This document shows positions 2,146 through 31,688 of a stretch of DNA of 46,044 nt, in pieces. The notes beneath the pieces were generated by a model. It made no database searches. It saw nothing but the letters and a program-made list of their open reading frames with translations, and was not told the DNA's origin. Made by a program: the position numbers and the translations under genes. The stretch spans positions 2,352 to 48,395 of the forward strand of contig PGYF01000001.1 of NCBI GenBank assembly GCA_002839535.1, in the 5' to 3' direction. Position 1 is the stretch's first letter. Each line of letters starts with the position of its first letter. Source of the stretch: Nitrospira bacterium HGW-Nitrospira-1. GTDB lineage: Bacteria; Nitrospirota; Thermodesulfovibrionia; Thermodesulfovibrionales; UBA6898.

Positions 2146-2164
2146 AGTGAGGAGACGATTATCA

Positions 2165-2779: not shown

Positions 2780-2813
2780 CCCCAGGGGAAGATGTGTTCC
2801 ATCCTCTGCTGTT

Positions 2814-4226
2814 TCAGTCGAACTGTTTTCTGATATTCAGAAACGTGGGAAGATTTTTTATGATCCTGAATGTGCTGTCGGGACACTTGAACATAAGGGG
2901 GCCGAATTTCCTGATCCAGTTCTTTCCTGTGTAGAAACGCTTTATAGACTGATTGTAGAGCCTCTCCATCTTCTCTTTCGATTCCATGCCCTTGGGAACA
3001 AAGACAAAATTCAGGCAGTTCATTAATTCCCAGTTCTCCTCGAACGTCCCCTCTTCATGGATCGTCTGATAGGCCGGGGACCCGGGAAAGGGCGTAAACT
3101 TGGTCATGTTCATATCGTCAAGTCCGAGTTCCTCGATAAAATCAGCAGTCCTTTGTATCGTCTGCTCGGTCTCGCCGGGAAGCCCCATCATAAAGAGACC
3201 CTTGGCCCTCATGTTGTTTTTCTGTATCCGCCTGACCGTGTCCCTTATCTGATGCAGGGTCACCTTTGCCTTATGCCTGTCAAGCAGTTCCTGGTCTCCG
3301 GATTCCATACCTATGCTCACCATCCAGCCACCCGAGGCCTTGAGAGTTTGCAGGAGCTCGTCATCCGCATGCCCTACCCTTACCGCGCAATTAAAGGTCA
3401 TATGCAAAGGCTTTTTCCTGAGCAGCCCGCAGAACTCCTCCACCCTTTTTCTGTTAAAGGTGAAGAGATCGTCATAGAAAAAAATATGCCTTATCTTGAA
3501 GTCCTTCCTGAGAAGACGCATCTGCTCATAGAGATATTCGGCTGAATTATACCTGAAGCTCCTCCGAAAAACAGACCGGTCGCAATAGGAACACTGGTAG
3601 GGACAGCCCCTGCTGGAGATAATCGTAGCGCTGGGGGACCTGGGATAATTAAAAAGCGGGGGCTCAAAGTATTTCGGAAACCCTTCAAGCTTTTGGTATG
3701 CTGGAAACGGGAGATCATCGAGTTCGCAAAGCTCAGTCCGGAATCCGCCTGAACAGATATTGTCACCATCACGGGAGATCACCCCCTGGATTGTGCGGGG
3801 ATCTTTCCCTCCTGCCAGGTCAGTCATGGCCATTTCACCTTCACCTGTCACGAGAAAATCAATGAGCGGAAAACTTTCCAGTATCTTCTCCCGTAACGCA
3901 GAAACATGGACCCCGCCGAACACAATCTTCACCTCAGGCATGACCTTCCTGATCTCTGTCACCTTGCGGTAGGCGTCCATGAAACCCGAAGTTGTCGCGG
4001 TAAAACCGATCATGTCAGGTTTCAGGGAACTGACCCTGTTCATAAGCTCTGCTGTCCCTCTCTGCCCAGCACGGCAGTTATGAATATCTACGTCAAAACC
4101 GTTCTTTATAAGATATGATGCCAGAAAAAGTATTCCCATCGGGGCCAACCGCACGGCCCTTTCCGTATCGTCCCTGAGCCCTTCTATCCAGTTTGAGCCA
4201 AAGGGATTAATGAGGAGTATTTTCAC
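2814..4226 (-). CDS. B12-binding (class B) radical SAM protein
   Basis: 470 aa. N-terminal Rossmann-like B12-binding region (MKILLINP...GILFLASYL...FGGVH), then SSRGCPYQCSYC (CX3CX2C). Confidence 0.85.
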   Translation of the reverse strand: MKILLINPFGSNWIEGLRDDTERAVRLAPMGILFLASYLIKNGFDVDIHNCRAGQRGTAELMNRVSSLKPDMIGFTATTSGFMDAYRKVTEIRKVMPEVKIVFGGVHVSALREKILESFPLIDFLVTGEGEMAMTDLAGGKDPRTIQGVISRDGDNICSGGFRTELCELDDLPFPAYQKLEGFPKYFEPPLFNYPRSPSATIISSRGCPYQCSYCDRSVFRRSFRYNSAEYLYEQMRLLRKDFKIRHIFFYDDLFTFNRKRVEEFCGLLRKKPLHMTFNCAVRVGHADDELLQTLKASGGWMVSIGMESGDQELLDRHKAKVTLHQIRDTVRRIQKNNMRAKGLFMMGLPGETEQTIQRTADFIEELGLDDMNMTKFTPFPGSPAYQTIHEEGTFEENWELMNCLNFVFVPKGMESKEKMERLYNQSIKRFYTGKNWIRKFGPLMFKCPDSTFRIIKNLPTFLNIRKQFD

Positions 4227-5652
4227 GCCTTACCTTTCCGCTTGCTGTTTTTGGCAATGCATCCACGACCTGAAAATCCTTGGGCACTTTATATTGAGAC
4301 ATCCTCTGATAGCAGAACCTTCGTAAATCACCCAAGTCCAGTTCCCGTGACGGGCTGTTTCTCAAGACAAGCATAGCCGCGGGCAGCTGCCCGTACTGCG
4401 GGTGGGATACGCCGTAAACCATCGACTCTTTCACGAGGGGATATTCGTTCAGCACAGCTTCCACTTCAAAAGGGAAAACCTTCATCCCCACAAAATTGAT
4501 GACATCCTTCTCCCTTCCGACAATAGTCAGATGACCATCATTTTCGAGCCTGCCGAGGTCACCAGTCCTGAACCAGCCGTCCTTCAGCACGCTCTCCTGA
4601 CCCTGCCATGGTGAAAAGTAGGCGTCAAACATGCCCTTCCCCCTGATATAAATCTCCCCGACGCCGTCAGTGTCTTTTGCTGCTATTTCGACCTCATAGT
4701 CCGGAAGGGGCCTGCCAACGCCCTCCCTGCTTTCCCCTCCGGACAACAGATTAATGAACGGCAACCCCACCTCGATAATACCGTAGGCCTCGGCCGGTTC
4801 AAATCCGAACTTCGCGGAAAACTCCTCTGCGATGGCACGGGGAAGCTTCATGGCGGTTGAAATCGCCAGACGTATATTACTGAGAGACCAGGGAGAAAGA
4901 AGGTCTGAACGGACCATTACGTTACAGTGAAAAGGTGAGGCATAAATAAACGTACCTTTATGACGCGTAATCCCCTCTATAAGAGATTCCGGAAAATTAT
5001 GACTGCAAAGTACGATGGTTGCCGCGCGGCGCAGAAAAAGGAGTATGGTCACCACGAAATGGAAACTCATCGAGAGCACCCACAGTACTGTATCTTCCGA
5101 AGTGATCTTCAGGCCTTTGTCTGCCGCGTCCGTCCTTTCAATGATGGCCTCGTGGGACATGACCACCCCCTTGCTTGCGCCGGTAGTGCCGGAGCTGAAA
5201 CGGATGAATGCAGGATTGATCCTGTAATATTCAGCATAGGGCAATGCAGGGACGTTTCTTTTAAGTATCCGCAATTCCTTTTTAAGCAAACCCTCTGATG
5301 GGAGAATTTCGGAGCCTTCTTCCTGATATGTCCCTTTTTCAAATATCAGGTAATCAAGAGATATCCTTTCTATAATTTCTTTTATCTCCTTATCAGCCTG
5401 TTCAGGAGAGACAGGAACGATCACCGCCGAAAGGGACAAGACCGCAAGATTTGTCGTAATGTAGTCAATGGAGTCGCCGCACAAAAGACCCACCCTGTGA
5501 AACCGGCCCACGCCTTTTGCCCTGAGAGAAGACGCAGTCATATCAGCAAAGGAGAGGAGCCTCCCATAGGAAAGCATTGCATCGCCTTCGATGACCGCTG
5601 TTTTCCCGGTAAAGTCCCGTGTCTCTTTTCTGATCGTATCGAATATGTTCAT
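4207..5652 (-). CDS. AMP-dependent synthetase/ligase (acyl- or aryl-adenylating enzyme, ApeH-like position)
   Basis: 481 aa. Motifs FSSGTTGASKGV, GWFRTGDLG and a C-terminal SGKV lysine motif of the ANL superfamily. Confidence 0.85.
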   Translation of the reverse strand: MNIFDTIRKETRDFTGKTAVIEGDAMLSYGRLLSFADMTASSLRAKGVGRFHRVGLLCGDSIDYITTNLAVLSLSAVIVPVSPEQADKEIKEIIERISLDYLIFEKGTYQEEGSEILPSEGLLKKELRILKRNVPALPYAEYYRINPAFIRFSSGTTGASKGVVMSHEAIIERTDAADKGLKITSEDTVLWVLSMSFHFVVTILLFLRRAATIVLCSHNFPESLIEGITRHKGTFIYASPFHCNVMVRSDLLSPWSLSNIRLAISTAMKLPRAIAEEFSAKFGFEPAEAYGIIEVGLPFINLLSGGESREGVGRPLPDYEVEIAAKDTDGVGEIYIRGKGMFDAYFSPWQGQESVLKDGWFRTGDLGRLENDGHLTIVGREKDVINFVGMKVFPFEVEAVLNEYPLVKESMVYGVSHPQYGQLPAAMLVLRNSPSRELDLGDLRRFCYQRMSQYKVPKDFQVVDALPKTASGKVRRENTPH

Positions 5653-5694
5653 ATCACCTTCTTACCGGTTCATGGGTAGTAAGGCCTCCTGTAT

Positions 5695-6906
5695 TTATAT
5701 TTCCTTATGCGATGAAAGGTAAGCTCCATATTTGATCTTGCGGGCTGCTGCCCTTCCTGCCTGCTCTCCCAGGGAGATGCATGTGCCCATCACCCTTGTA
5801 GAGCCGAGCGCCTCGTGAGAAACCGATATACAGCGACCGGCGCATAATAAGTTGTCAAAGCCGTTCACCTTCAAACAGCCGAAAGGTATCTCATAATAAT
5901 CACCCTTTTTCACATACCGGTAAATCGTCCCTTTGTTCCTGTCCCATAGCTCTATGGGCCATGAACTTCTGACAATGCCGTCCGGAAATTTCTTTGCGCT
6001 CAGGACATCTTCTTCCGTAAGCATGTACTCACCCCTGATCCTCCTGCCCTCCCTTTCCAGAACACCTTTGGAAGTTTCCGCGATGCAGGAGTCCCTGAAT
6101 GCATCGAGCCTGTCTGACAAATACTTGTAGGCTGACAGCGCATCCGTTATCGCCCCTTGTCTGCTTTCGATATCGTTCGAAACAGACACACTAACTTTCA
6201 GGTATCCCTCGTCCGGACTGTCACCGGGGACCAGGACTGAAAATCTGAGTTCAGGAGGCAGAATCCTGTTTTTCACAGCCTCGGCCAGGCACCACGGGAC
6301 TTTCAGCCGCAGGCTTTCATCATAATCTTTCAGCCCCCTTATATGCATCACATACGCGGCAAGCTGGAGTTTTTCCTGCGGAGCTGCCTCAAAGTCGGCC
6401 CCTGCCATCGCTGAAACCGCTCCGCTGCCTGAGCAGTCTATCACCATGCCGGGTACTATTTCATAGTCGGCGCCTGCACATGCCACCATTACCCCGTCTA
6501 TTTTTTCTCCACTCTTGCTGACCGATACCACCGTTGTATCCGGACAAACCTCGATATTTGATTCTGCCCGGCAGAAGGAATCAAAAACAGTTCTGAGGTC
6601 TTCCCTGGAATAAGGCAGGACATAGACCCGCCCCATTTTCTGCACTGTCTTATCAGGAGATAATGCATTCAGTAAGGCGACAACCTCCCGGGATAGTCCC
6701 TTGTTGAGAGTTTCTTCGGGCATACTGTCACTATTGAGGTAAAGGCCGCAGATATGCCTGAGCAATCCGGAATAGCCGATACCACCCAGAAAACCTTCTT
6801 TCTCGACAAGACACGTACGCGCTCCCTGCCGCGCAGCTGCCACAGCTGCCGCCACACCGGAAACACCACCGCCTGCAATCAGCACATCGGTCCGAATACT
6901 TTTCAC
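5695..6906 (-). CDS. FAD-dependent oxidoreductase
   Basis: 403 aa. N-terminal dinucleotide fold DVLIAGGGVSGVAAAVAAARQGARTCLVEKEGFLGG. Confidence 0.75.
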   Translation of the reverse strand: MKSIRTDVLIAGGGVSGVAAAVAAARQGARTCLVEKEGFLGGIGYSGLLRHICGLYLNSDSMPEETLNKGLSREVVALLNALSPDKTVQKMGRVYVLPYSREDLRTVFDSFCRAESNIEVCPDTTVVSVSKSGEKIDGVMVACAGADYEIVPGMVIDCSGSGAVSAMAGADFEAAPQEKLQLAAYVMHIRGLKDYDESLRLKVPWCLAEAVKNRILPPELRFSVLVPGDSPDEGYLKVSVSVSNDIESRQGAITDALSAYKYLSDRLDAFRDSCIAETSKGVLEREGRRIRGEYMLTEEDVLSAKKFPDGIVRSSWPIELWDRNKGTIYRYVKKGDYYEIPFGCLKVNGFDNLLCAGRCISVSHEALGSTRVMGTCISLGEQAGRAAARKIKYGAYLSSHKEI

Positions 6907-7091
6907 ACGGAAACCTCCAGTTTCTCCTTTACGCCTTTTGTCAGCATCAGGACTTCCTCATCAGACAACAGTCCGTCGAGATAAGAGATAACAAAATTCA
7001 GCCGTCCGTCAAAAGAATTGAAAAAAACCCCCAGTCCGGGCGGGACCGGGACCCGTGGGGTATGAAAAAGATTTTTTATTTCCGACCCCAT
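6903..7091 (-). CDS. C-terminal fragment of condensation-like acyltransferase (frame-shifted relative to 7076-8185)
   Basis: The 62-aa ORF overlaps the end of the upstream ORF by 16 nt in another frame. GLGVFFNSFDGRLNFVISYLDG resembles the last strands of condensation/WS-DGAT folds. Confidence 0.5.
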   Translation of the reverse strand: MGSEIKNLFHTPRVPVPPGLGVFFNSFDGRLNFVISYLDGLLSDEEVLMLTKGVKEKLEVSV

Positions 7092-8185
7092 GCAACCTTT
7101 CCACCCATTGGCAGGCGAAAAACTTTTTCCAAAAAAGAAAGCGGGGCGATACGCAGCAGTGCGCTCGCAGCGGAAAGGTCTTTCGGCATCCCGGCTTTTA
7201 CCTGCTCATACATCTGGCCCTTCACTGTCTTCATAATCTTCTTCAGGTCGGCAGTCTCCTCTGCCGGGACCTTGAAAAACAGGTAGGAAACGTGGTTCAG
7301 AAATAATTCCTGTGTTATGTCCTCGCTTGTTCTCGAATCAATGGTGACAGGGACCACATAATTATTCGTCTCTATCCCCTTTTCTTTAAAAAGCTGATGG
7401 ACCGCCTGTATGACAACAGAGAGCAGATAGGGCATCTCCATCAAATACCCGGCCTGGCTATACGCGGCCTCGAAAATTCTGGTCGTCTCTTCTTCGTCAA
7501 AAGAAATAAGGCGGAATTTAAAGCCCCTGTCCTTTTCCTGCGGAAGAGGCAGGATTTCAAAGGCTGGTTTTGAAAGGGCGATCATCTTACGGTTAACATT
7601 CCTGCCTGAATAAAATTTCTGCATCCAGTCTGAAAGGTCCGCAGGGGCGGTCAGTTGCAGCCCCTGCAAAATGGCCGCAAGGTCTGCTCCCGAAGAATAT
7701 TGCAGAAACAGCTCGAGAAAGTTTTCAGCCCCACGCGCATCGAACAGGCGATGGTCAAAGGTCATCGCAAAGATACTGTCCTTTTTTCCCCTCTGCATAA
7801 GATGGAACGCAAGATGTTCATTGTCCGGGAAAGGGCTGTTCACGGCCTTTTCAAGTAATAGCAGGGCCTCCTCCAGTGACGGATTTTCTTCTGTTTCATG
7901 GACACTGAGCTTGAAGTCAACGGTCGCCTTTTCAGGTAATCGCCAGTAGGGGGTGAGATTGAAGTCCCGGCACACATTACCCTGAAGCATCGGAAACTCT
8001 TTCAGAAAATCTCCCAGCCGCTGCCTGAGGGGACCTTCGTCAAGCTGCGCATCCATCACAAGAACGATCTGAGACATATTTCCCGCGCAGGTCATGGATT
8101 TCATCGTATGGTCAAGCGTATTGATTACCCAGTCCGTGCCGGACAGATACAATTTGTTTTTGGACGAAGGGATAACAAAGCCCAT
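7076..8185 (-). CDS. Condensation-domain-like (HxxxD) acyltransferase, N-terminal ~85 percent
   Basis: 369 aa with FDHRLFDARG (HxxxD catalytic motif). The size and motif position fit the condensation / PapA5 / WS-DGAT superfamily. It terminates prematurely next to a GGGG run. Confidence 0.6.
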   Translation of the reverse strand: MGFVIPSSKNKLYLSGTDWVINTLDHTMKSMTCAGNMSQIVLVMDAQLDEGPLRQRLGDFLKEFPMLQGNVCRDFNLTPYWRLPEKATVDFKLSVHETEENPSLEEALLLLEKAVNSPFPDNEHLAFHLMQRGKKDSIFAMTFDHRLFDARGAENFLELFLQYSSGADLAAILQGLQLTAPADLSDWMQKFYSGRNVNRKMIALSKPAFEILPLPQEKDRGFKFRLISFDEEETTRIFEAAYSQAGYLMEMPYLLSVVIQAVHQLFKEKGIETNNYVVPVTIDSRTSEDITQELFLNHVSYLFFKVPAEETADLKKIMKTVKGQMYEQVKAGMPKDLSAASALLRIAPLSFLEKVFRLPMGGKVAWGRK

Positions 8186-8187
8186 AA

Positions 8188-8430
8188 TTAGAGCTTTGAG
8201 GTGATAAAGGCCGCCAGAGAATTCAGTGTCTCAAAATCCTTTTTGGTCAAATCAGTTTCGACCATATTGAGATTAAAGGTCTTTTCAATAAATACAAGCA
8301 TCTCGACAAAACCAAGCGAATCGAGTCCCAATTCTTTAAAGGGCATATCAACATCCACTGAATATCTGTCAATAGAGAGTATCTCAGAGACGCCGTCTAT
8401 CAATTTTTCCTCTACTTCCTTTTTTGTCAT
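8188..8430 (-). CDS. Acyl carrier protein (ACP-1)
   Basis: 80 aa, with the LGLDSLGFVEML phosphopantetheine attachment motif (DSL). Confidence 0.85.
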   Translation of the reverse strand: MTKKEVEEKLIDGVSEILSIDRYSVDVDMPFKELGLDSLGFVEMLVFIEKTFNLNMVETDLTKKDFETLNSLAAFITSKL

Positions 8431-8447
8431 TTCCGTCTCAGGTGATA

Positions 8448-9518
8448 TTATAACCGGCTTTTTCTTAAGCAGATAACCGCGCTTTCAGCCGAACAATTAT
8501 ATCCAATAGAACGTATTAAATCAATTCCGGCAGGTCTGCTCACATCGACCAGATTGACGTTGTGCGGGTTCTCAAGTATTGGACCGGCATATTGCATCTG
8601 TTTTTTTATCATCAGGGCTCCTGCCGCGCAATTAAAGGCACTGCCGGTCATGAGGCTTCCAAATAAAGGCGAATAAGCGGCAACAGGGACTGTTGGGGAA
8701 AGCGCTTTAAGATATGCGGTCCCGTCAATGGTACCATCGGAATCAATAAGGTCAATGTCTGACGCTTCATTAGGCCCAAGTCCTTCGTTAAAAGCAATAT
8801 CGTCTATTCTGCAATAGGCCTTTTCCGGCGACTTCCAGGAGACGACAAAGAAGACACTTCCCTCCCCAGGGACCGGAGGTGATGTTGGGGAGAAATGAAA
8901 AGGCCTCACCTTGCCGTCTGTTGCTGTGCCCAGTTTTCCGTCAAAGATATATCTCATGACCTCCCCGCACTCGTCCGCCACACCCACAAGTACAGAGTCA
9001 CAGCGGCCATCAAGGAGCCACACCTGCGCAAGCTGAAGGGCGCTTTGGAAAGGGAAAGAGAACCGCGTAACTGTCAGGGCCGGGCCGGTTATATCCAGTG
9101 CAGAAGTAATATAGGAGACAGCCGCGTTATGCACAGAATTCGAAAATATTGTGGGAGATACCTGGGCTTCACCGTAATCAATAATATTATCAAGAAAATC
9201 GAATGTGGTCTGATGCGCGCCGAAGGCAGTAGATAAAATTATACCGGTCCTGTTTTTGTTAATATCAACTCCGCTATCCTTGATTGCATCAGATGCTGCC
9301 AGGACAGCCATTTTGCTCAGCTTGTCGGCCCTGCGCATTTTTTTCAGCAGGACCTTGTCTGCTATGTCCCCATTGTTCACTGCATAGACAGGCAATCTCT
9401 TTTGTATGCGGGGAATATCATATTCCACCGGCTGCTGCCAACCCTGCTTCAGCGCATCTTCATAACGCCCGATACCTCTGCCGCCGCTGAATATTATCCC
9501 TATGCCGAGCAGATTCAT
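8448..9518 (-). CDS. Chain-length-factor-like ketosynthase homologue (no active-site Cys)
   Basis: 356-aa thiolase-fold-like ORF directly downstream of a KS. STAFGAHQTT sits where a KS has xACSS, so the catalytic Cys is absent. Confidence 0.7.
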   Translation of the reverse strand: MNLLGIGIIFSGGRGIGRYEDALKQGWQQPVEYDIPRIQKRLPVYAVNNGDIADKVLLKKMRRADKLSKMAVLAASDAIKDSGVDINKNRTGIILSTAFGAHQTTFDFLDNIIDYGEAQVSPTIFSNSVHNAAVSYITSALDITGPALTVTRFSFPFQSALQLAQVWLLDGRCDSVLVGVADECGEVMRYIFDGKLGTATDGKVRPFHFSPTSPPVPGEGSVFFVVSWKSPEKAYCRIDDIAFNEGLGPNEASDIDLIDSDGTIDGTAYLKALSPTVPVAAYSPLFGSLMTGSAFNCAAGALMIKKQMQYAGPILENPHNVNLVDVSRPAGIDLIRSIGYNCSAESAVICLRKSRL

Positions 9519-9521
9519 TTT

Positions 9522-10691
9522 CTACCCTCTCCCCAATAAAAGCGCTGCGTTGTTGCCGCCAAAGGCAAGGGATGTTGATACCGCATATCTGCCTTTGATT
9601 CTGGTTTCTTCCTTTACCGGCGTAATGGGGATATCATCATCCTTATTCCTGAACCCTGGGCTGGAAGGTATCCATCCCTCGCTCAGGCCGGCTGCTGTAA
9701 AGGCGGCCTCAAGCCCACCTGCAGCGCCAAGGGTATGCCCTGTAAACCCCTTTGTCGATAACACCTTAAGGTCAGGCCCGAACATTCTTCCCAGCACCTT
9801 GCCCTCAACCAGATCATTATCTGTTGTCCCTGTTCCATGGGCGTTGACAAAACATATTTCACCCGGCCCTATACCTGCCTCTGCTAGGGCTTTATTTATA
9901 GAGGCCTCCAGCCCTGCGCCGTCAGGTCTGGGCGCTGTGAGGTGATAGGCATCAGCTGATGCGCCATAGCCCAAAATACAGAGATCTGAAGACTTGCCCC
10001 TCAGCTTGGCGGAAGCCTCTGTCTCAAGTATCAGGATGCCAGCGCCCTCGCCCAGATTCAGTCCCCTGCGGTCCCGGTCAAAAGGTGAACACAGGGACTG
10101 ATTGACTATACCGAGGGAGCTGAAACCGCAAAGGGGAATGAGGCTCAATTCATCAGCGCCTCCTGCAACCGCAATATCGCAAAGCCCTGTTTTCAGCCAC
10201 GAAAAAGCCATGCCGATCGCATCAGTCCCTGAGGAGCAGGCGTTCACTACAGTCAGGGCAGGGCCTCTGGCGCTGATCTTACGGGCGATGAATTCCGCAA
10301 TGTTCCCCTTGATATATCTGTCCACAACTTCCATGGGGGCGTTGCCGCTTTGCCTGTAGGAGCGGTAAAACTCCAGGTCATTTAGCTGGCTTGCCACTGT
10401 CGTGCCAATGCTTACGCCGACGCGCAGCCCGGTGAGATCGCCAAGCGAGGTGCTGTCCATGGCCTCGTCAAGCGCGCAGAGCGCAAGGCTGAGAGTCCTG
10501 CTTTTCTCCACTATAAAACCGGCGGGTATCTGCCTGACCTCAAAAACCGGACATTCCAAAGAGGTAGTGAAAAGCGAGACAGGCCCAGCGTTTCTATCTA
10601 CTCTTTTGAATGAATCAAGCGTCACGGAAAGACCCCTGCCGGCAGCAGATATCACGCCAAGTCCGGTAATCAGAACCTCAGAATTTTTCAT
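9522..10691 (-). CDS. Beta-ketoacyl-ACP synthase (KS, FabF/FabB-like)
   Basis: 389 aa. The Cys-His-His triad motifs VVNACSSGTDAIG, NAHGTGT and GHTLGAAG are present. Confidence 0.9.
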   Translation of the reverse strand: MKNSEVLITGLGVISAAGRGLSVTLDSFKRVDRNAGPVSLFTTSLECPVFEVRQIPAGFIVEKSRTLSLALCALDEAMDSTSLGDLTGLRVGVSIGTTVASQLNDLEFYRSYRQSGNAPMEVVDRYIKGNIAEFIARKISARGPALTVVNACSSGTDAIGMAFSWLKTGLCDIAVAGGADELSLIPLCGFSSLGIVNQSLCSPFDRDRRGLNLGEGAGILILETEASAKLRGKSSDLCILGYGASADAYHLTAPRPDGAGLEASINKALAEAGIGPGEICFVNAHGTGTTDNDLVEGKVLGRMFGPDLKVLSTKGFTGHTLGAAGGLEAAFTAAGLSEGWIPSSPGFRNKDDDIPITPVKEETRIKGRYAVSTSLAFGGNNAALLLGRG

Positions 10692-10703
10692 ATCAGTTTC
10701 GCC

Positions 10704-11633: not shown

Positions 11634-11683
11634 TTTATAATTACTACAACCTGCGGTCTCTGTCGCAGGGGTTCTTTACTAAG

Positions 11684-13054: not shown

Positions 13055-13066
13055 ACGGTGGGTGTT

Positions 13067-13360: not shown

Positions 13361-13388
13361 ACCCCTTGCATTTGATATTTCGATTTAA

Positions 13389-14153: not shown

Positions 14154-14170
14154 TCCTCACTCATTACGCA

Positions 14171-24383: not shown

Positions 24384-25842
24384 GCCAGACCTTTATTTCA
24401 CCTGTGGCTATCATGTCCTTTCCCTTGAAAATCTCCCCCTTGATTACACCGAATTCCCCATATTTTGCGACTTTATAGGTATAAACACTCAGCGTATCGC
24501 CAACTCCAGCGCTCCCCATAATCTCCAGATTCTTTACGCCCAGAAGAAAACCCTTTGAGCCGTTTTTACCGTTCCCTAAATTCTTGAACCCATTATGTGC
24601 TGCAATCGCCTGTGAAATAAGTTCCGGATAATAGGCCTCCTCAAGCCTGCCTTCCTCAGAGACAAATATCGTGTCTTTTGCTATAACAACTTCTGCTGTG
24701 GATTCCCTTTCCCCCACCCTGAGCAGTTTATTGACTATACGCATGGGAGGTTTATGAGGCACTAATTGGGAGGCGTCAATCGGCAGCCTGAAAATATCGT
24801 CCTGTTTGTCCTGATTCCTCCAGCACAGGGGATCAGAAGCCAGATAGTCTCCGGTCAACTGGAAGGCCGCCCCACGGCAGCCGTAACACCTGTCCAGACT
24901 GGAACATTCGCTGCAGGGCCCCTTGATAGTCTGTTTATAGTTCTTCAGGTCCTGGATTACCTCGCTGTCCAGAAGAATGTCCGCCAGTTTCCTTTGCCTG
25001 ATGTTCCCGACAGGTATGGTAACCCCCACGCAGGGCTGGACATCACCGTATGCATTGATTGCGCAGGAGAATTGGTGCCGCAGGCATTCACCGCCAACTA
25101 AAGGCGGCTGCGGTTCCCAGTGACGTCCGTATTTCAGCCTGTCTATCTCAGCTATCCTGCGGAAAAATGCATGGACACGCTCTGTATCAACATACAGCAG
25201 GTCATTTTTTTTGGCATTGCCCTGCGGCGTGATCATTTCAAAATAAGGGGTGACGCCCTGGTCCTTCAGCCACTCCCACATCCGTTCGAGTTCATCGATG
25301 TTCTGGTTGCAGATAATAGTGCTGATACCAAGGGGCGCCTCAGAGGGATAGCCAGCAGCCTTCAGATTACAGAAGGCCTCATGTATCTGGAAATAGGCGC
25401 CTTTTTTCCCTGAGAGCATGTCCTGCATATTCTCATCAAAGGTGTTCATTTTCAGCACCACCGCAACCCCGTGGCCGCGCAATATCCGCGCAGTTCCTGC
25501 GTCAATGCCTGTTCCGTTGGTGAAGAGTTCTATATGCAGGCCCTCTGCTTTTATGAATGCAAGCATCTCAAGGATATGAGGGTATATCATCGGTTCTCCG
25601 CCCAATATTATGATCTTTCTCGCCCCCAGGTCCTTAGCCTGCAGTATCACATCCCTGATTTCATCTGCTGTCATCTCACCCTCGTAATTAAGATCGTCTT
25701 TTGCGTAGCAGTAGATGCAGTTAAAATTACACCGGCGCGAAAATTCAACCTCCACTGAAAGCAGCCTGCCGCTGCCTGCCGCCTCGGCGATATCCTCCGG
25801 TGAAAATTCAGCGCCGTACATGCGACTTCTACAACTCTCCAT
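24370..25842 (-). CDS. Radical SAM / SPASM-domain protein fused to a C-terminal hot-dog (ApeP/FabA-like dehydratase) domain
   Basis: CNFNCIYC (CX3CX2C) and GGEPMIYP. Seven-Cys SPASM pattern (C-X12-G-X4-C, then CSECSSLDRCYGC, then DPLC). The C-terminal ~135 aa start VPHKPPMRIVNKLL and have a hot-dog-like pattern (nt ~24373-24789). Confidence 0.85.
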   Translation of the reverse strand: MESCRSRMYGAEFSPEDIAEAAGSGRLLSVEVEFSRRCNFNCIYCYAKDDLNYEGEMTADEIRDVILQAKDLGARKIIILGGEPMIYPHILEMLAFIKAEGLHIELFTNGTGIDAGTARILRGHGVAVVLKMNTFDENMQDMLSGKKGAYFQIHEAFCNLKAAGYPSEAPLGISTIICNQNIDELERMWEWLKDQGVTPYFEMITPQGNAKKNDLLYVDTERVHAFFRRIAEIDRLKYGRHWEPQPPLVGGECLRHQFSCAINAYGDVQPCVGVTIPVGNIRQRKLADILLDSEVIQDLKNYKQTIKGPCSECSSLDRCYGCRGAAFQLTGDYLASDPLCWRNQDKQDDIFRLPIDASQLVPHKPPMRIVNKLLRVGERESTAEVVIAKDTIFVSEEGRLEEAYYPELISQAIAAHNGFKNLGNGKNGSKGFLLGVKNLEIMGSAGVGDTLSVYTYKVAKYGEFGVIKGEIFKGKDMIATGEIKVWHGEK

Positions 25843-27139
25843 TTTTCTCTCTCCTGTCTATTAATCTGACTAATTTCCGCGAATTCCCCGAATACACCTG
25901 TGCCCTCACCTGCTCCTCGCTTGCGATGACCACCTCAGGACAGACCCGCAAACGGGCCTGGAGTTCAGTTGCGATACTCTCTGCTGAACAGGCGCTGTTA
26001 CCGACCGATACACATATCCTTATCTGATCGGAAAGATCGTAATCACTGGACAGCGTGATGTAATATTCACTGATGCCGGGGATCTCAGCCAGCACAGAGT
26101 AAATGGCCTGCGGATAGAGGGTTGTGCCCCGGTATTTGATCATCTGTTTTTTTCTTCCGATAATAGGCCCAAGCCGGGGAGAAAAACGGCCGCAGCTGCA
26201 AGGCTCATCAATAAGGAAACTCACATCGCCGGTCTTGAACCTCAGCAGAGGCATGCCCTCTATGGAGAGCGGCGTCACCACAACCTCTCCTGTTTTTCCG
26301 CAGGGCAGGACCTTGCCCATATCATCAACGATCTCAACGACAGCAAGGTCAGGATGGAGATGCCCACCGGCCTGCATTTCACATTCACAAAAAGACGTGA
26401 TGGTTTCGGAAGAGGCATAGGTCGAGAAAACCTTAGCTCCCCATATGTCCTCGAGGTGCGCGCCCATTTTCAGAAGAGACATATCTTTGTCCCTTATTGG
26501 TTCGCCGATACAAATCAATTTCGATACGCCGATTCCCCGTGGCTCAATACCTTTTGAAACAAGATACTGCCCGAGTTTAAGTAAAAAAGAAGGGACCCCG
26601 ACGATGACAGTGGGGTTGACCCTCAGCATGGTCTCAAGATGGCTCGCAACACTGTTGAGGCCGTTTCTCACAGCAGCCGCGCCCAGGTTTCTCGTCCCCA
26701 GAAAATAGGCCAGGCCGGCGATAAAACACCGGTCGAGGGTGCAGGTAAGAAGTGCTATATCCTCTGCCGAAATACCGCAGCCCGCCAGAGAGATTTCCTC
26801 ATTGTAGGCGAGTCTTTTGAGGTCGTTTTCCGTATACATAATCCTGGTAGGTGCGCCGGTAGTCCCGGAGGAAAAAACAATATCAACTATTTTCGAAAAA
26901 GGGACTGCAAGAAAATCATCGCAACATTTTTCAAAGTGCGCTTTTTCGGTAAACGGCAGTTCGTACAGGTGGTCAAGCCCGGTATTATCTATGTCAATGC
27001 CGCTCAGCGTCCTTCTGTAATATGGGGAATTACTGACGAGGCAGCGCAGATGGTCACTAAAAAGTTTTTCCTGGGCGTCCTTGATCTCCTCCGTGCCTGA
27101 AAATTCCAGCCCCCTGTATAAAGGAGAGAATTTCTTCAT
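25829..27139 (-). CDS. Phenylacetate-CoA ligase (PaaK)/F390-synthetase-like adenylate-forming enzyme
   Basis: 436 aa. The FSSGTTGAPTRIMYTENDL motif and overall PaaK-like length. Confidence 0.8.
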   Translation of the reverse strand: MKKFSPLYRGLEFSGTEEIKDAQEKLFSDHLRCLVSNSPYYRRTLSGIDIDNTGLDHLYELPFTEKAHFEKCCDDFLAVPFSKIVDIVFSSGTTGAPTRIMYTENDLKRLAYNEEISLAGCGISAEDIALLTCTLDRCFIAGLAYFLGTRNLGAAAVRNGLNSVASHLETMLRVNPTVIVGVPSFLLKLGQYLVSKGIEPRGIGVSKLICIGEPIRDKDMSLLKMGAHLEDIWGAKVFSTYASSETITSFCECEMQAGGHLHPDLAVVEIVDDMGKVLPCGKTGEVVVTPLSIEGMPLLRFKTGDVSFLIDEPCSCGRFSPRLGPIIGRKKQMIKYRGTTLYPQAIYSVLAEIPGISEYYITLSSDYDLSDQIRICVSVGNSACSAESIATELQARLRVCPEVVIASEEQVRAQVYSGNSRKLVRLIDRREKNGEL

Positions 27140-27885
27140 GCCCTGTTCTCCATCAAAGACAACTCGCTTTCTATTATTGACCTCACCCTGTTCTTAAGCG
27201 CAAACACACTGAAATGCCTGTATTCTTCCCAGCGTATCGCAGGCAACCTGCGCACCCTGATTGTGCCTGACCGCAAAAGAAAAGACCCCTTCGGCGGAAT
27301 ATTCTCATTTCCCACAATGCAAATAGGCGCTATGGGCGCCTTTGATCCGAGGGCCAGACGGAAGGCGGCGCCGTGAAATGGGCCCATCTCCCTGCTTCCC
27401 GAACGTGTCCCCTCAGGGAAAAAAATTATCGAAACGCCCTCGGCAAGCAGGGACTCGGCCCTCTCATTAAAAAGTTCAGGCGTCATCTTTTTGATGTTCA
27501 GGTATCCCGCCATCTTCGCAAAACGGCCGATGACCGGAATATAAAAAGGCCAGGTATTGACCACCTGAACCGCCTCATGGGGAAGCACGCACATAAGAAA
27601 GGCATCGGAGGCAGCCCTGTGATTAGAGACAAAGATACAGCCCCCGTCAGCGCCTCCACCGGAACAATCCTCGTAGCGGAGTCTGATAAATGGAAAAGGA
27701 ACAGAGGTCATAACCCTGCCGTACCAGCTGATGCAACGCCGGAACCTCTTCATGACACGGCGGTTTTGCAGGAAGAGGGACAAAAAAACTACATAGAGAA
27801 AAAGCAAAGGGATAACGATCGCAGAAGATATGAGAAATAACACATAGAAATACGCGTTCATTATGATGAGCTTCATCCGACCCAT
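27136..27885 (-). CDS. 1-acyl-sn-glycerol-3-phosphate (PlsC-type) acyltransferase
   Basis: N-terminal TM helix, NHRAASD (HX4D) and FPEGTRS motifs. Confidence 0.8.
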   Translation of the reverse strand: MGRMKLIIMNAYFYVLFLISSAIVIPLLFLYVVFLSLFLQNRRVMKRFRRCISWYGRVMTSVPFPFIRLRYEDCSGGGADGGCIFVSNHRAASDAFLMCVLPHEAVQVVNTWPFYIPVIGRFAKMAGYLNIKKMTPELFNERAESLLAEGVSIIFFPEGTRSGSREMGPFHGAAFRLALGSKAPIAPICIVGNENIPPKGSFLLRSGTIRVRRLPAIRWEEYRHFSVFALKNRVRSIIESELSLMENRA

Positions 27886-27888
27886 CCG

Positions 27889-28155
27889 TCAGGAAGCCTT
27901 CCCGCCACCGGCATTTTTTATCGTGGAAATAAACTGATACACGTCCTGCAGTGTGCGTATGTCCCGGATTTTCTCCTCGTTCCTGATATTCACTCCAAAG
28001 CTCTTCTGGAGCGCAACGACCAGATCCACTATATCAAGGCTGTCCAGTCCCAGGTCGTTAAAGATATGCGCGCCCGGCTGCAATCTTTCCTTTTCTATCT
28101 CAAAGGACTCCTCAAACACCTTATTGGTCTTCTCTATAATCTCCTCTTCAGTCAT
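27889..28155 (-). CDS. Acyl carrier protein (ACP-3)
   Basis: 88 aa, LGLDSLDIVDLVV motif. Confidence 0.85.
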   Translation of the reverse strand: MTEEEIIEKTNKVFEESFEIEKERLQPGAHIFNDLGLDSLDIVDLVVALQKSFGVNIRNEEKIRDIRTLQDVYQFISTIKNAGGGKAS

Positions 28156-28177
28156 TCTTTCACCTCATTGATTAATT

Positions 28178-29404
28178 TCATACCTTCCTGCAGACCAGCG
28201 CCGCATTTATGCCGCCGAAGGCAAAACAGTTTTTCAATATCACCTCTATGTTTTTTGTGACCAAAGCAGTGACATGATTTATTCCAGCGCAGTCAGGGCT
28301 TATGTTTTCAAGATTCAGCGTCGGATAAATAACGCCTCTTTGCATCATGCGCAACGAGGCGATAAGCTCTATCGCGCCCGAGGCCCCAAGTGTATGACCG
28401 ATATAGCCCTTGAGACTGCTGACAGGGACAGAAGCGCCGAAGACCTCTTTGATGGCCTCAGCCTCCTCCTTGTCTCCCTGCAGGGTCGCTGTTGCGTGCG
28501 CATTTATGTAGTCGATCTCTCCGGGGACAATGCCGGCGTCGCGCAACGCCTGTTTCATGCATCGTACCATAGACTCCCTGTTGGATTGACTGACGTGCGA
28601 ACCGTTTCCATTGGTATTATAACCCGTAATCTCCGCGTAAATCCTGGCATTCCTTTTGATCGCCCGTTCGTATTTTTCTAAAACAACAACGCCGCTCCCC
28701 TCACCGCAGACAAGACCGTCCCGGTCCCGGTCAAAAGGCCTCGGCGTCTTTGAGGGGGCATGATTAAAGCCTGCTGAAGTGGCCATAAGCACATCGAAAG
28801 ACCCTGTGACAGTCGGATGCACCTCTTCAGAGCCTCCGCAGAGCATGACGTCCTGTCTCCCTAACCTCACAAGGTCATATCCTGCGCCGATCGCCTGAAG
28901 AGACGAAGCGCAGGCAGCAGAGGTGGCCATGATATATCCTGTCAGTTCAAGGTACTGTGCAACATTCGCTGCCGCAGTGTGGGACATGCACTGAAAAAAC
29001 ATCGAGGAATTGAGTTGGCTGATGTCCTTATGAGGCAGCATGATTTCAAAGGCGTCGTTGATACTCTTTGCGCTGCCCATGGTAGAGCCGATTGCACACC
29101 CCATTTTCATCTGTGGGACCATAGCAGGGTCTATGCCCGCATCAACGAGCGCCTGCTCGGCGGCCTGGGCTGAAAAAATGCTCATACGCCCCATGAAACG
29201 CCTTTTCTGGCGGGGAATTGCCCGTTCGTCTTTTATCTCTGCAGTTGCTGCGACATGGCTCCTGAGACCGATATATTGGTCCCAGCCTTCCATGAAGCGC
29301 ACCGCGCTCCTCCCCTGCTCAATCCCTGCCATGAGAGCTTCCACATCACAGCCGAAAGGGGAGACCGCGCCTGCTCCTGTAATGACAACCCTGTTTGATT
29401 TCAT
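28178..29404 (-). CDS. Beta-ketoacyl-ACP synthase (KS, ApeR/FabB-F-like)
   Basis: 408 aa. Motifs TSAACASSLQAIG, NAHATAT and GHTLGASG. Confidence 0.9.
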   Translation of the reverse strand: MKSNRVVITGAGAVSPFGCDVEALMAGIEQGRSAVRFMEGWDQYIGLRSHVAATAEIKDERAIPRQKRRFMGRMSIFSAQAAEQALVDAGIDPAMVPQMKMGCAIGSTMGSAKSINDAFEIMLPHKDISQLNSSMFFQCMSHTAAANVAQYLELTGYIMATSAACASSLQAIGAGYDLVRLGRQDVMLCGGSEEVHPTVTGSFDVLMATSAGFNHAPSKTPRPFDRDRDGLVCGEGSGVVVLEKYERAIKRNARIYAEITGYNTNGNGSHVSQSNRESMVRCMKQALRDAGIVPGEIDYINAHATATLQGDKEEAEAIKEVFGASVPVSSLKGYIGHTLGASGAIELIASLRMMQRGVIYPTLNLENISPDCAGINHVTALVTKNIEVILKNCFAFGGINAALVCRKV

Positions 29405-30897
29405 AGATGACGGCCCACAAAGCCTGCGTATTTTTCTTCTTTAATAATAGACCTGCCCACAAAAAAGGACGACATCATCGCGCCTATTATTCCCGGCAGG
29501 AGAGAACTTTGGCCGGCCGCAAATACGTTTCGCAGGGGAAGTTTCCCAAACAGATTATACTGCCCGACCTTCTGTTTTATGCCGTATGCAGACCCGTCGG
29601 GACTGTGCAGATAATCCCTGAAGGTAAGTACTGAGGCCGCATCAACAACCCTGAGACAGTCTCTGTATTTTGGCAGGACACTGAATATACGTTCCCTGAT
29701 GCTCTCAATCCTCTGAAGTTTATAATCCAGATAGGCCTGCGGTCTCAGACCTCTCCTGGTGTCTTTCCATACTTCAACGTGTTCAAAAAAAGAGGTTTCG
29801 AGGATATTGATAATGTGTTTCCTCGTCCCGTTTACTTCCTCTACAGACCTGAGAAGCACCAAGGCGCCCAGCCCCTCGTATCCGGGATCAAGGATCTGGT
29901 TTATGTCAGTGTGCGGGAAAATAGAGACAATCGAATTATCTATTCCCTCATCGCCGCAGCCGGGATCCAGGGTTGCGAACAAGGCAAAAAATCCGGTAGA
30001 AGCCTCGAAAGAAGAGACACGGCTGATAAAGGCCTTGCTCAATACCCCCTCAGGGATGAGTTTCAAAATCTCTTTTGGGTGGATCGTAAAGACGCAATTT
30101 TCGCACTCAATCTCTTCCCCTGTGTTCAGTATGAACCTGCCCACGCGGTTGTCCCTGATATCAGCCATTTCCGCAATAGTGGTCCCGCAGGAGACCTCTA
30201 TGTCAAAGTCCTGAAACCGTTTTTGAAACGCCTCTATAAGCGCATTGCCGCCGCCATGAATGCGCGCAACAGACTCATAAAGACCGAGGCAGATCCTGCT
30301 GTGATTGGCGAAGGTGATCTCCTGTGGTTTGACTCCGTAGCACATGGCAAAGCCGGACAGCAGGGCCTTCAAAACTTTATTGCCTGTCAGACCATTTAAC
30401 ACTTCATCCAGGGTCATAAAATCTTCATCTATGTGGCCCTGATTCATTGCCGGATTGCGAAGGTTCATCGAAGGAGTTTGCGCACACACCTGAATTACTT
30501 TGTCGAAATATTTGTCTATAGCAGCCGCCTCGGACGGGAAATAACCCTTTAACCTTTCCCGCAACCCTGGAAAGCCGTAGGGAATTTTATACAGCCTGTT
30601 TTCGGATTCCAGAAAAAAAGAGTTGGCGTTGTCCTCAGGAAGAAAAACCGGCTCAATGGAATCATAGATCCCCAGCGCGGACAGCATCTCATAAAGCAAC
30701 CCGCCCTTTTGCAGCCCGCCGGTAAAGTGAAAACCAGTATCAAAGGGAACGCCGTCTCTCGTAAAAACTGAAAGAGACCCTCCGATGCGGTGGTTTTTTT
30801 CGAGCAATAAAACTCTGCGGCCGTTCATCGCAAGGAAAAGGGTCATGGCAAGTCCGCTTACGCCGCTTCCGACAACTACATCGTCATATTTCTTCAT
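29401..30897 (-). CDS. Phytoene desaturase (CrtI)-like NAD(P)/FAD-dependent oxidoreductase
   Basis: 498 aa. YDDVVVGSGVSGLAMTLFLAMNGRRVLLLEKNHRIGG dinucleotide fold, and a length typical of the amine-oxidase/CrtI family. Confidence 0.75.
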   Translation of the reverse strand: MKKYDDVVVGSGVSGLAMTLFLAMNGRRVLLLEKNHRIGGSLSVFTRDGVPFDTGFHFTGGLQKGGLLYEMLSALGIYDSIEPVFLPEDNANSFFLESENRLYKIPYGFPGLRERLKGYFPSEAAAIDKYFDKVIQVCAQTPSMNLRNPAMNQGHIDEDFMTLDEVLNGLTGNKVLKALLSGFAMCYGVKPQEITFANHSRICLGLYESVARIHGGGNALIEAFQKRFQDFDIEVSCGTTIAEMADIRDNRVGRFILNTGEEIECENCVFTIHPKEILKLIPEGVLSKAFISRVSSFEASTGFFALFATLDPGCGDEGIDNSIVSIFPHTDINQILDPGYEGLGALVLLRSVEEVNGTRKHIINILETSFFEHVEVWKDTRRGLRPQAYLDYKLQRIESIRERIFSVLPKYRDCLRVVDAASVLTFRDYLHSPDGSAYGIKQKVGQYNLFGKLPLRNVFAAGQSSLLPGIIGAMMSSFFVGRSIIKEEKYAGFVGRHL

Positions 30898-30953
30898 TCC
30901 ACTTAATAACCGGAAGGGGCCGCAGACAATGGACCGGAAAGGTCCAAAACAAC

Positions 30954-31688
30954 CTACATTGACAGGCCTCCGTTGACAGCTATAACCTCCCCGTGAATAT
31001 ACATATTTTTTTCAGCACACAAAAAATTGACCACAGCTGCAACATCTTCCGTATTGCCCAGCCTGCCAAGGGGAATGAGGGGTAGTACCCGTTCCCCTGG
31101 AATGCCTTCCGTCATTTCAGTCTCGATAAACCCCGGGGCAACAACGTTTACCGCAATGTTCCTTTTACCCACCTCGCGCGCCAAGGCCTTGGCCGCCCCT
31201 ATCAAACCCGCCTTTGAAGCGGAATAATTGACCTGGCCCGCCTGTCCGATCTGTCCCGAGGTCGAAGATACAACAACAATACGCCCCTCTTTGGCCCTTA
31301 ACATCGAAAACAGGACCGTACGGGTTACATTAAAAAAACCGTCCAGATTAGTGGAAAGGACGGAATCCCATTCCTCTTTTGTCATCCACATCAAAAGATT
31401 ATCTTTTCTGATTCCGGCGTTATAAACAAGTGCGTAAGGCGCCGATTCTTCGGTCAGTTTTCCCAGCGCCGCTACGGTTTCCTCATAATTTGAGATATCG
31501 AAACAGAGCAGTTTGCACATCATCCCCTTTTTTTCTATATCAGCCTTTACGGACTCAGCGGCAGGGTGATTGCTCTTGTAAGTCAGCCATATATCAAAGC
31601 CGGAATCAGCCAGCCGTAAAGCAACTGCACGCCCGATACCACGACTTCCCCCGATTATCAATGCGATTTTTTTTGTCTGATTTTCCAT
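30954..31688 (-). CDS. fabG: 3-oxoacyl-ACP reductase (SDR, ApeQ/FabG-like); first gene of the operon
   Basis: 244 aa. GGSRGIGRAVA cofactor motif, YSASKAG catalytic motif and the SDR length. Confidence 0.9.
   Translation of the reverse strand: MENQTKKIALIIGGSRGIGRAVALRLADSGFDIWLTYKSNHPAAESVKADIEKKGMMCKLLCFDISNYEETVAALGKLTEESAPYALVYNAGIRKDNLLMWMTKEEWDSVLSTNLDGFFNVTRTVLFSMLRAKEGRIVVVSSTSGQIGQAGQVNYSASKAGLIGAAKALAREVGKRNIAVNVVAPGFIETEMTEGIPGERVLPLIPLGRLGNTEDVAAVVNFLCAEKNMYIHGEVIAVNGGLSM

Follow-up and report, generated by a model that had tools for sequence, protein, structure and literature searches.

A probable Nitrospirota version of a widespread lipid gene cluster family that joins aryl-polyene-type machinery to radical SAM enzymes

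A 46,044-nucleotide stretch of contig PGYF01000001.1 from Nitrospira bacterium HGW-Nitrospira-1 (assembly GCA_002839535.1, positions 2,352 to 48,395; hereafter the window, whose own numbering is used throughout) carries 28 consecutive open reading frames (ORFs), all on the minus strand, running from 31688 down to 2814 (∼29 kb in the ORF listing of the window). Sequence comparisons suggest that these genes, g01 to g28, are probably the Nitrospirota version of a widespread, anaerobe-associated family of lipid gene clusters built on machinery of the aryl polyene (APE) or highly reducing type II polyketide synthase (PKS) kind, here with five radical S-adenosylmethionine (radical SAM) enzymes. Our confidence in any specific radical SAM reaction is far lower. 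The cluster family, though not its product, has already been described: one of the enzymes belongs to the NCBIfam family TIGR04072, several proteins are homologous to kuste proteins of the anammox bacterium Kuenenia, and the gene combination appears in Rattray et al. 2009 and in genome-mining reports. The original prediction, made from the DNA alone, had called the pathway undescribed; that claim does not stand, as the family has been known since 2009 and shares the TIGR04072 enzyme, the kuste homologies and matching gene content with the window. What is new is an expanded Nitrospirota/Geobacter-type version with a radical SAM–dehydratase fusion and a second module, and not the system itself.

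Evidence that the radical SAM genes belong to the cluster comes from its conservation. A scan of one genome per species finds relatives of the fusion protein g07 in 551 species genomes. The best 80 of these 551 are mostly Nitrospirota (Thermodesulfovibrionia), and include Geobacterales, Pelobacter, Desulfuromonadales, Omnitrophota, "Deltaproteobacteria", one member of the Verrucomicrobiota and one of the Deferribacteres. When all window proteins are placed by tblastn, g01–g17 lie in the same order in nearly every locus that is long enough, in Nitrospirota, Geobacterales and Omnitrophota. Genes g01–g06 are present in 46 of 51 loci, all collinear; among the 48 loci with enough sequence, g15 is found in 45, and g15 together with g16 in 43. 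The median identity of g15 across phyla is 76%, a value exceeded only by the small acyl carrier protein (ACP) g04 (77%). Clustering of g15 orthologues at 50% leaves about two full-length representatives, after which identity drops to ∼40%, the level of paralogues. The collinearity of g01–g17 in dozens of genomes from several phyla places the gene array far beyond chance, and because it holds across phyla we count the radical SAM genes as part of the cluster core. Co-conservation of these genes with those for ketosynthase (KS) and ACP in related genomes, on which the original prediction had made its reading depend, is therefore found. Within the family the radical SAM complement varies, from five to six or more.

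Pfam, NCBIfam and PDB searches of the window proteins underlie the gene assignments given here, and they agree with each of the gene families first proposed. All five radical SAM proteins that had been predicted (three B12-binding enzymes of class B, one HemN-like and one SPASM-type) are recovered by their domains, and the CxxxCxxC motif is present in five of five (g07, g15, g16, g20 and g28). The first of these, g07 (24370–25842), is a radical SAM/SPASM protein fused to an ApeP/FabZ-like hot-dog dehydratase. It has eight cysteines beyond the CxxxCxxC motif, as expected for a SPASM domain, and the hot-dog motifs PH..PPM and E..Q are conserved without exception among its homologues. Its C-terminus matches chain B of PDB entry 6qsr, which we take to be the ApeI:ApeP dehydratase complex; the separate ApeI/FabZ-like hot-dog subunit g11 (20251–20631) weakly matches chain A of the same entry, and FabZ. 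The radical SAM enzyme would thus be fused to one subunit of an ApeI:ApeP-type pair. This fusion occurs in all 80 of the best genome matches (Nitrospirota, Geobacterales, Omnitrophota and others), and the g07 family has more than 2000 matches, of which the top 120 are all at least 60% identical and have the radical SAM–SPASM–ApeP architecture. Unfused SPASM radical SAM proteins are seen in Kuenenia (kuste3343, 349 aa) and in four Desulfobulbaceae loci (L084, L086, L088 and L089; ∼350 aa).

In g15, g16 and g28 a predicted B12-binding domain lies N-terminal to the radical SAM core with its CxxxCxxC motif, an arrangement that corresponds to the class B architecture. TIGR04072, "lipid biosynthesis B12-binding/radical SAM protein" (model rSAM_ladder_B12), is matched by g16 (15342–16715) over its full length with 623.6 bits against a cutoff of 360, which is the decisive evidence on the affiliation of the cluster. 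The nearest characterised relatives of g16 are TsrM (5e-31) and BzaD, and those of g28 (2814–4226) are HpnJ, BchE, AprD4 and TokK, which points to different reaction classes. The third enzyme, g15 (16712–17983), is atypical; its B12-binding domain is marginal (34 bits, cutoff 32.1), as are its PDB matches, and its nearest identifiable relatives are kuste3608 and kuste2803. Judged from such relatives, the chemistry of the three may be methylation, cyclisation or rearrangement. A protein-cluster look-up returned a generic JGI label only for relatives of g15, and no source-given name for g16 or for the neighbouring nadA.

The HemN-like enzyme g20 (11684–13054) combines a HemN-like core with a HemN_C domain. 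Among proteins of solved structure it is closest to the class C methyltransferase NocN (5e-26), followed by HemN (7e-23). In the characterised HemN-like proteins other than HemN itself (NocN/NosN, ChuW and Jaw5), a methylene radical derived from SAM is added to sp2 carbons (PMC13459092). A candidate relative of the class C methyltransferases and cyclopropanases (NosN/NocN, ChuW and Jaw5), g20 has the core and HemN_C, the best matches being NocN among solved proteins and ChuW/HutW in NCBIfam, and its gene adjoins that of an ACP in a system expected to yield enoyl- or polyenoyl-ACP, the sp2 type of substrate used by class C enzymes. It differs from these families in that every score lies under the family cutoff (ChuW/HutW 182 against 400, HemN 151 against 325 and HemW 145 against 205), so that g20 fits no named equivalog.

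The APE-like core of the cluster, as predicted, is complete by Pfam, NCBIfam and PDB comparison. Chain extension is represented by the ApeR-like KS g03 (28178–29404; PRK09116 type) and by a KS/chain-length factor (CLF) pair corresponding to ApeO:ApeC, namely g13 (18654–19772) and the short, 225-residue g14 (17980–18657). The Cys-His-His triad is intact in g03 and g13, and in the KS of the second module, g22; in g14 the active-site Cys position is occupied by Gln, as in the CLFs of type II PKS systems. Matches of the KS/CLF pairs include 6qsp and the ishigamide KS 6kxd in the PDB, and PRK09116, PRK09185 and, below cutoff, cispentacin AmcF/G/B in NCBIfam. For g13 and g22 the best solved match is chain B of PDB 9s5h/9s5i, a heterodimeric pair of 3-oxoacyl-ACP synthase chains, and g14 weakly matches its chain C. 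The entry may be the anammox amxFabF2/amxFabFmut heterodimer, a suspicion on which we base no claim.

Processing of the chain is represented by the FabG/ApeQ-like ketoreductase (KR) g01 (30954–31688; SDR family, Pfam adh_short 2e-49, NCBIfam FabG and FlxB, the latter with 296 bits against a cutoff of 340) and by the dehydratase pair of g11 and the g07 C-terminus (ApeI:ApeP). The ACPs are g04 (27889–28155) and g19 (13067–13360; PRK09184 type, 74.5 bits, cutoff 70), and a PaaK/ApeH/FlxY-like adenylating enzyme, g06 (25829–27139; Pfam AMP-binding and AMP-binding_C_2, FlxY 448 bits against a cutoff of 520), is the candidate for starter loading. The set is completed by the 4HBT thioesterase g12 (19769–20254), the PlsC-type acyltransferase g05 (27136–27885) and LpxL-like acyltransferase g18 (13389–14153), a GT2 + DUF2062 glycosyltransferase resembling polyprenyl-phosphate-sugar synthases (g17, 14171–15358), the LolA-like carrier g08 (23670–24383; LolA2_flexi 113 bits, cutoff 125) and two weaker assignments, an RND/MMPL-type exporter of the HpnN/HAE3 kind (g09, 21290–23677; HpnN 2e-23 and HAE3 1e-17, both below cutoff, Pfam MMPL faint) and a small DUF3261-like lipoprotein (g10, 20628–21293; 22.3 bits, at the cutoff). 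Taken by database, the Pfam families matched are ApeI-like, ApeP-like, DUF3261, LolA, 4HBT, PlsC, LpxL and GT2 + DUF2062; FlxB, FlxY, LolA2_flexi, PRK09116, PRK09184 and PRK09185 are near-threshold NCBIfam matches, and the PDB matches are 6qsp and chains A and B of 6qsr.

Set against the APE and flexirubin clusters of Proteobacteria and Bacteroidetes (ApeA–S, with the X. doucetiae structures 6qsp and 6qsr), the window has the same KS/CLF pair with a short CLF, extra KS, two ACPs, KR, ApeI:ApeP-type pair, ApeH-type ligase, 4HBT protein, PlsC- and LpxL-type acyltransferases, GT2-DUF2062 protein, LolA, MMPL/RND and DUF3261 proteins. It goes beyond them in its five radical SAM enzymes, two flavoproteins, second KS/CLF/ACP module, condensation-fold transferase and NodB deacetylase, and differs in having neither an aryl-starter supply gene nor a SAM methyltransferase and in being carried by anaerobes. 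So full a gene set would suit a canonical APE pigment cluster in which the radical SAM genes are unrelated neighbours or dispensable, but we consider this very unlikely. Throughout several phyla the radical SAM genes are found at constant places within the operon, one of them is covalently fused to the ApeP-type dehydratase, and g15 is among the best-conserved proteins; moreover, the minimal versions of the cluster in Desulfobulbaceae and Kuenenia retain the radical SAM genes but are without much of the APE export set.

A likeness to the gene combination proposed for ladderane formation in anammox bacteria had been drawn originally by analogy. The relation is one of direct homology. BLASTP comparison of the window proteins with the Kuenenia sequences in Table S6 of Javidpour et al. 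2016 (PMC4790861) gives 44% identity over 331 aa between the radical SAM–SPASM part of g07 and kuste3343 (E 1e-107), 34% over 399 aa between g16 and kuste3342 (E 1e-86), and 30% (E 7e-48) and 26% (E 8e-33) between g15 and kuste3608 and kuste2803 respectively. The amine-oxidase or CrtI/CrtD-like flavoprotein g02 (29401–30897; Pfam NAD_binding_8 and Amino_oxidase, with weak CrtD/CrtI matches) is 24% identical to kuste3336 (E 5e-15) and kuste3607 (E 8e-18); it shares their flavoprotein family, but is not necessarily an orthologue of either. The published list for kuste3335–3352 comprises a glycosyltransferase, a phytoene-desaturase-like protein, a membrane protein, FabZ, ACP, FabG, two radical SAM proteins, a phenylacetyl-CoA ligase, FabFs, a non-canonical FabF, a further ACP, a deacetylase-like protein and more (PMC4790861), and the gene content of the window matches it, the remaining Kuenenia genes having been compared by means of this list.

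Rattray et al. 2009 had already noted that a combination of type II fatty acid synthesis and radical SAM genes is common to Kuenenia, Desulfotalea psychrophila (DP1853–1861), Geobacter and Pelobacter (PMC2649909). The window shares with all of these the TIGR04072 B12-binding enzyme (g16), the SPASM radical SAM protein (g07, a homologue of kuste3343 and DP1855), the PaaK-type ligase (g06, which adjoins g07, an adjacency repeated in L084–L089) and an amine-oxidase/phytoene-desaturase-like flavoprotein inside the cluster (g02). It also has in common with them several FabF-type KS paralogues, including a non-canonical one without catalytic residues, extra ACPs, FabG, a FabZ-like protein, a glycosyltransferase and a deacetylase. 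In contrast to these, the cluster in the window is larger, its SPASM radical SAM protein is fused to a dehydratase, a HemN-like radical SAM gene lies inside the operon, and there are in addition a full LolA/RND/DUF3261/thioesterase export set, a third B12-binding radical SAM enzyme and a condensation-fold transferase. Conventional SAM methyltransferases, represented in Kuenenia by kuste3338 and kuste3347, are absent from the window.

These homologies, among them the 30% identity of g15 to the anammox-specific kuste3608, could be taken to mean that the product, like that of anammox bacteria, is a ladderane (cyclobutane) lipid, and genome-mining papers do report antiSMASH-based "ladderane" and "arylpolyene-ladderane" regions in non-anammox phyla, to which no function is assigned. 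We regard ladderanes as an extremely unlikely product. The carriers are Nitrospirota, Geobacterales, Omnitrophota and others, not anammox bacteria, whereas ladderanes are known from anammox bacteria only and none are found in D. psychrophila despite its related cluster (PMC2649909). The cluster currently favoured for ladderane synthesis is, moreover, the anammox-only Cluster I, kuste3603–3608 (amxACP, amxFabZ, amxFabF2/amxFabFmut, a PDH-like protein and a B12-binding radical SAM protein), which has its own ACP and FabZ and one distant relative here. The window resembles it in having a KS/CLF-type heterodimer, a dedicated ACP, a CrtI-like flavoprotein and a B12-binding radical SAM enzyme (g15), but the host belongs to the Nitrospirota, gene set and order differ, and the relation is limited to distant radical SAM and flavoprotein similarity. 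Literature searches on aryl polyenes, ladderanes and TIGR04072 returned no characterised equivalent, and a 2026 review of lipid-modifying radical SAM enzymes still lists those linked to ladderanes as lacking a known function.

Rattray et al. 2009 put forward another role for such clusters, in which polyunsaturated fatty acids or hydrocarbons would be made anaerobically, with the flavoprotein and radical SAM enzymes as desaturases. The polyunsaturated hydrocarbons of D. psychrophila, which carries a related cluster, are in keeping with it, as are the two amine-oxidase/CrtI-like flavoproteins of the window, g02 and g26 (5695–6906; FAD_oxidored, PF12831, 8e-78), and the lack of an obvious enoyl reductase. 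Yet neither kuste3336 nor kuste3607 showed CrtI activity, and no polyunsaturated fatty acids were formed when the homologues were expressed (PMC4790861). The PaaK-type ligase, GT2 protein, LolA, RND exporter and lipid-A-type acyltransferases point instead to an anchored and exported lipid, and we find the desaturase route improbable. In bacteria of this kind, polyolefins are ascribed to Pfa/Ole pathways.

The cluster divides into two modules. Module 1 consists of g01–g19 and module 2 of g20 and g22–g28, the variably present NodB-family deacetylase g21 (10704–11633) lying between. The second full KS/CLF pair with its own ACP, correctly foreseen from the DNA, is formed by the KS g22 (9522–10691), a full-length CLF-like partner without catalytic Cys and His (g23, 8448–9518) and the ACP g24 (8188–8430), and the module further contains a second adenylating enzyme of the acyl-CoA/ACP ligase type (g27, 4207–5652). 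Its position differs between loci. In L087, from the Nitrospirota, the g09–g26 region is collinear with the window; in L091 the series g20-g22-g23-g24-g25-g26-B12-binding radical SAM gene forms an operon of its own, divergent from g01–g06; and in L018, L040, L043, L057, L060 and L064 module 2 genes stand upstream of g01, in either orientation. Homologues of g20 are highly conserved, the top 120 all being at least 63% identical, and between Nitrospirota and Desulfobulbaceae g20 retains 65–69% identity compared with 26–49% for its neighbours. In the Desulfobulbaceae-type loci L084, L086, L088 and L089 the g20 homologue is divergent from a reduced cluster with the order KS, amine oxidase, KS, ACP, PlsC, PaaK ligase, unfused SPASM radical SAM and B12-binding radical SAM, to which L084 and L088 add a FabH-like gene; this order is the one implied for DP1853–1861. 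We conclude that module 2 is a conserved, movable sub-operon adjoining module 1.

Some of these relatives carry further genes. In L087, module 2 includes a 604-residue fusion of alpha/beta-hydrolase, radical SAM and SPASM domains (16018–17832 of that locus) together with a GT1 gene, and L090 has an additional 479-residue B12-binding radical SAM protein (12750–14189), its fourth. In L084, L086 and L089 (∼11.4–13.1 kb) efp and an EpmA-like tRNA-synt_2 gene come next after the g20 homologue, in the same orientation; in L088 their place is taken by sugar-modification genes. A partnership of g20 with efp/epmA was considered and rejected, as the lipid cluster is the neighbour common to the four loci and the genes downstream are not constant.

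No Pfam family is assigned to g25 (6903–8185), and a sequence search of the PDB gave no match. An AlphaFold2 model of a full-length homologue, 82% identical (predicted local distance difference test score 82, predicted template modelling score 0.87), matches the condensation and epimerisation domains of nonribosomal peptide synthetases (NRPS) with E ∼1e-19. In the homologues H146, D150 and G153 are invariant, and the first His of the HHxxxDG motif is replaced by Asp, hence xHxxxDxxG. On the modelled two-lobed fold, similar to that of chloramphenicol acetyltransferase, and this motif, g25 is assigned to the NRPS-type condensation superfamily, and the condensation-like acyltransferase of the original prediction was thus correct.

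The mobility of module 2 raises the question of whether g01–g19 and g20–g28 are two adjacent but independent pathways with separate products. Besides the varying position and orientation of module 2, the reduced clusters that lack most of it and the low GC content at third codon positions (GC3) of g19, g20 and g24 relative to their neighbours would fit such a division. Module 2 nevertheless adjoins module 1 in every arrangement seen across phyla, and it has no KR, dehydratase or exporter of its own; the condensation fold of g25 also implies coupling to another moiety. Two separate pathways therefore seem to us unlikely. As to base composition itself, GC3 is clearly lower in g20 (0.39), g24 (0.44) and g19 (0.48) than in the other cluster genes (0.49–0.62).

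A general scheme for a single lipid pathway, which we consider more likely than not, can be proposed from these assignments. In module 1, g06 would load a carboxylic-acid starter, possibly aromatic, onto an ACP, and the KS g03 and the KS/CLF pair g13/g14 would extend the chain. With one KR (g01), an ApeI:ApeP-like dehydratase pair (g11 and the g07 C-terminus) and no clear enoyl reductase, each round would be processed without enoyl reduction, so that an unsaturated acyl-ACP intermediate is expected. The radical SAM/SPASM domain of g07 and the B12-binding enzymes g15 and g16 may act on this unsaturated ACP-bound chain, and g07, being fused to a dehydratase, would have to operate at or next to 3-hydroxyacyl or enoyl intermediates bound to ACP. 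Module 2, with its own ligase, KS/CLF, ACP, flavoprotein, B12-binding and HemN-like radical SAM enzymes, would build or tailor a second acyl unit. By the chemistry of its family, g20 could methylate or cyclopropanate sp2 carbons, for which a polyenoyl-ACP would be a fitting substrate, and g25 might couple the module 2 acyl unit to an acceptor. The GT2 protein, NodB deacetylase and LpxL- and PlsC-type acyltransferases would attach the product to a glyco- or lipid anchor, and the LolA, RND/MMPL and DUF3261 proteins would move it to the outer membrane, as is assumed for APE lipids. Of the radical-tailored, anchored and exported lipid first suggested, the integration of the radical SAM enzymes (co-conservation and the g07 fusion) and the logic of envelope export are retained, and the nature of the product remains conjectural.

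More tentatively, and with more doubt than belief on our part, the cluster could represent an oxygen-independent line in which radical methylation, cyclopropanation or ring closure on the growing chain gives a new class of outer-membrane lipid, as a sister or ancestor of the ladderane pathway. The core of such a pathway may be the PaaK ligase, KS, ACP, PlsC, flavoprotein, SPASM radical SAM protein, TIGR04072 and kuste3608-like B12-binding radical SAM proteins and the HemN-like radical SAM protein.

Several observations weigh against these proposals. The product is known for no member of the cluster family. The lipid extracts of D. psychrophila contain polyunsaturated hydrocarbons and no ladderanes, and nothing in them has been tied experimentally to its cluster (PMC2649909); E. 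coli expressing the Kuenenia homologues made no new fatty acids, kuste3342 and kuste3343 being undetected (PMC4790861). Most matches to APE families, FlxB, FlxY and LolA2_flexi among them, fall just below the curated cutoffs. No gene for aryl-starter supply (for instance chorismate lyase or ammonia lyase) was found within the window, flanks included, and because of this the "aryl" of the comparison is unproven. The "polyene" is equally so. As noted originally, no enoyl reductase is obvious, but this is not conclusive, because g26, with its weak match to geranylgeranyl reductase, could serve to reduce double bonds. In L090, otherwise collinear with the window, g20 is not in place, and in L085 a solitary g20 homologue lies away from any such cluster. 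Finally, the copy in the window may itself be defective, or its assembly wrong, with g25 frameshifted and g18 shortened.

This last point emerges from three independent public contigs (GCA_017973855.1, an NCBI metagenome-assembled genome (MAG); JGI 3300029891; and ENA ERZ27239245) that are 100% identical to the window over 21 kb save for two stretches. The window lacks 52 nt at 7094/7095, in g25, which causes a frameshift, and 138 nt at 13454/13455, in g18, which removes 46 codons in frame from a protein that is 300 aa when intact. As a result g25 of the window stops at 7076, 169 nt before the start of g26, and its C-terminal 65 codons lie in another frame, whereas the public contigs have an intact 444-residue g25 overlapping g26. 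Only 2–3 nt of microhomology are present at the two deletion junctions. A truncated 369-residue g25 product from a 48.4-kb contig (P0244) is on record, so that the window copy either represents a genuine variant or has been misassembled.

The layout of the genes is that of an operon. The single-strand array first described between 31688 and 2814 is reproduced as the 28 minus-strand ORFs, and all ten of its overlapping junctions prove to be 4-nt start/stop overlaps, seven of them ATGA, two GTGA and one TTGA. The claim that no gap exceeds 56 nt is true if g25 is read across the frameshift; as the window stands, the gap of 169 nt between g25 and g26 contradicts it. A promoter-like element, TTGATA-N18-TATAAT (31712–31741, minus strand), lies 23 nt upstream of the g01 ATG and is the best sigma-70-like match in the region around g01, with 11 of 12 positions in agreement. 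Such sites are not in excess around g01 (14 against a shuffled expectation of 14.6), and because the total equals that expectation the element is a plausible but not a proven promoter. A hairpin follows the stop codon of the upstream, same-strand nadA. Transcription of the genes from g01 onwards as one unit, which had been read from this element, is plausible. Scanning the window for Rfam families and tRNA genes gave no match, and no riboswitch was found. Farther along, at 2000–21999, sigma-70-like sites are about twofold in excess on both strands (41 against 21.0 in shuffles, standard deviation 5.4); the cause might be promoters within the operon, such as one ahead of g19/g20, or simply the AT-richer segment at 11–14 kb.

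The flanks hold housekeeping genes: nadA, an SLT transglycosylase, a small radical SAM gene, EamA, RarA, coaD, rsmD, purN, surA, fabD, electron transfer flavoprotein (ETF) genes, coaE and a PagL-like outer membrane protein gene. The last, encoding a PagL-like lipid A 3-O-deacylase or outer membrane beta-barrel (2123–2779, plus strand), is convergent with the operon at its 3' end, separated by 34 nt from the g28 stop codon, and may represent another envelope-lipid function. The small radical SAM protein, a sixth in the window (33629–34267, minus strand; 212 aa, Radical_SAM and Fer4_12), lies outside the operon among the housekeeping genes and is probably QueE-like by size and domains. Near the lipid locus, at 39331–42217 on the minus strand, fabD is followed by genes for ETF alpha and beta, the alpha subunit having an N-terminal 2x[4Fe-4S] ferredoxin domain (FixAB-like).

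Clusters of this kind, in hundreds of anaerobic species from several phyla, place up to five or six radical SAM enzymes in a polyketide- or fatty-acid-like machine that has had no known product for about twenty years. Among non-anammox clusters they come closest to the genes that have long been suspected of forming ladderanes. The window adds detail, namely the radical SAM–dehydratase fusion, the tight conservation of g15 and the separable second module, and is not a new lead, because the question is already recognised and the cluster type has been reported in the cultivable genera Geobacter, Pelobacter and Desulfotalea (Rattray et al. 2009). Related MAGs from these groups are collinear with the window, whereas a genetic system is lacking for anammox bacteria. 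Knowledge of the product would add new radical SAM lipid chemistry and reveal the meaning of the "ladderane" calls made by genome mining outside the anammox bacteria. If the pathway is a sister or ancestor of the ladderane pathway, its solution in a cultivable Geobacter or Desulfotalea would also show which chemistry the anammox homologues perform.

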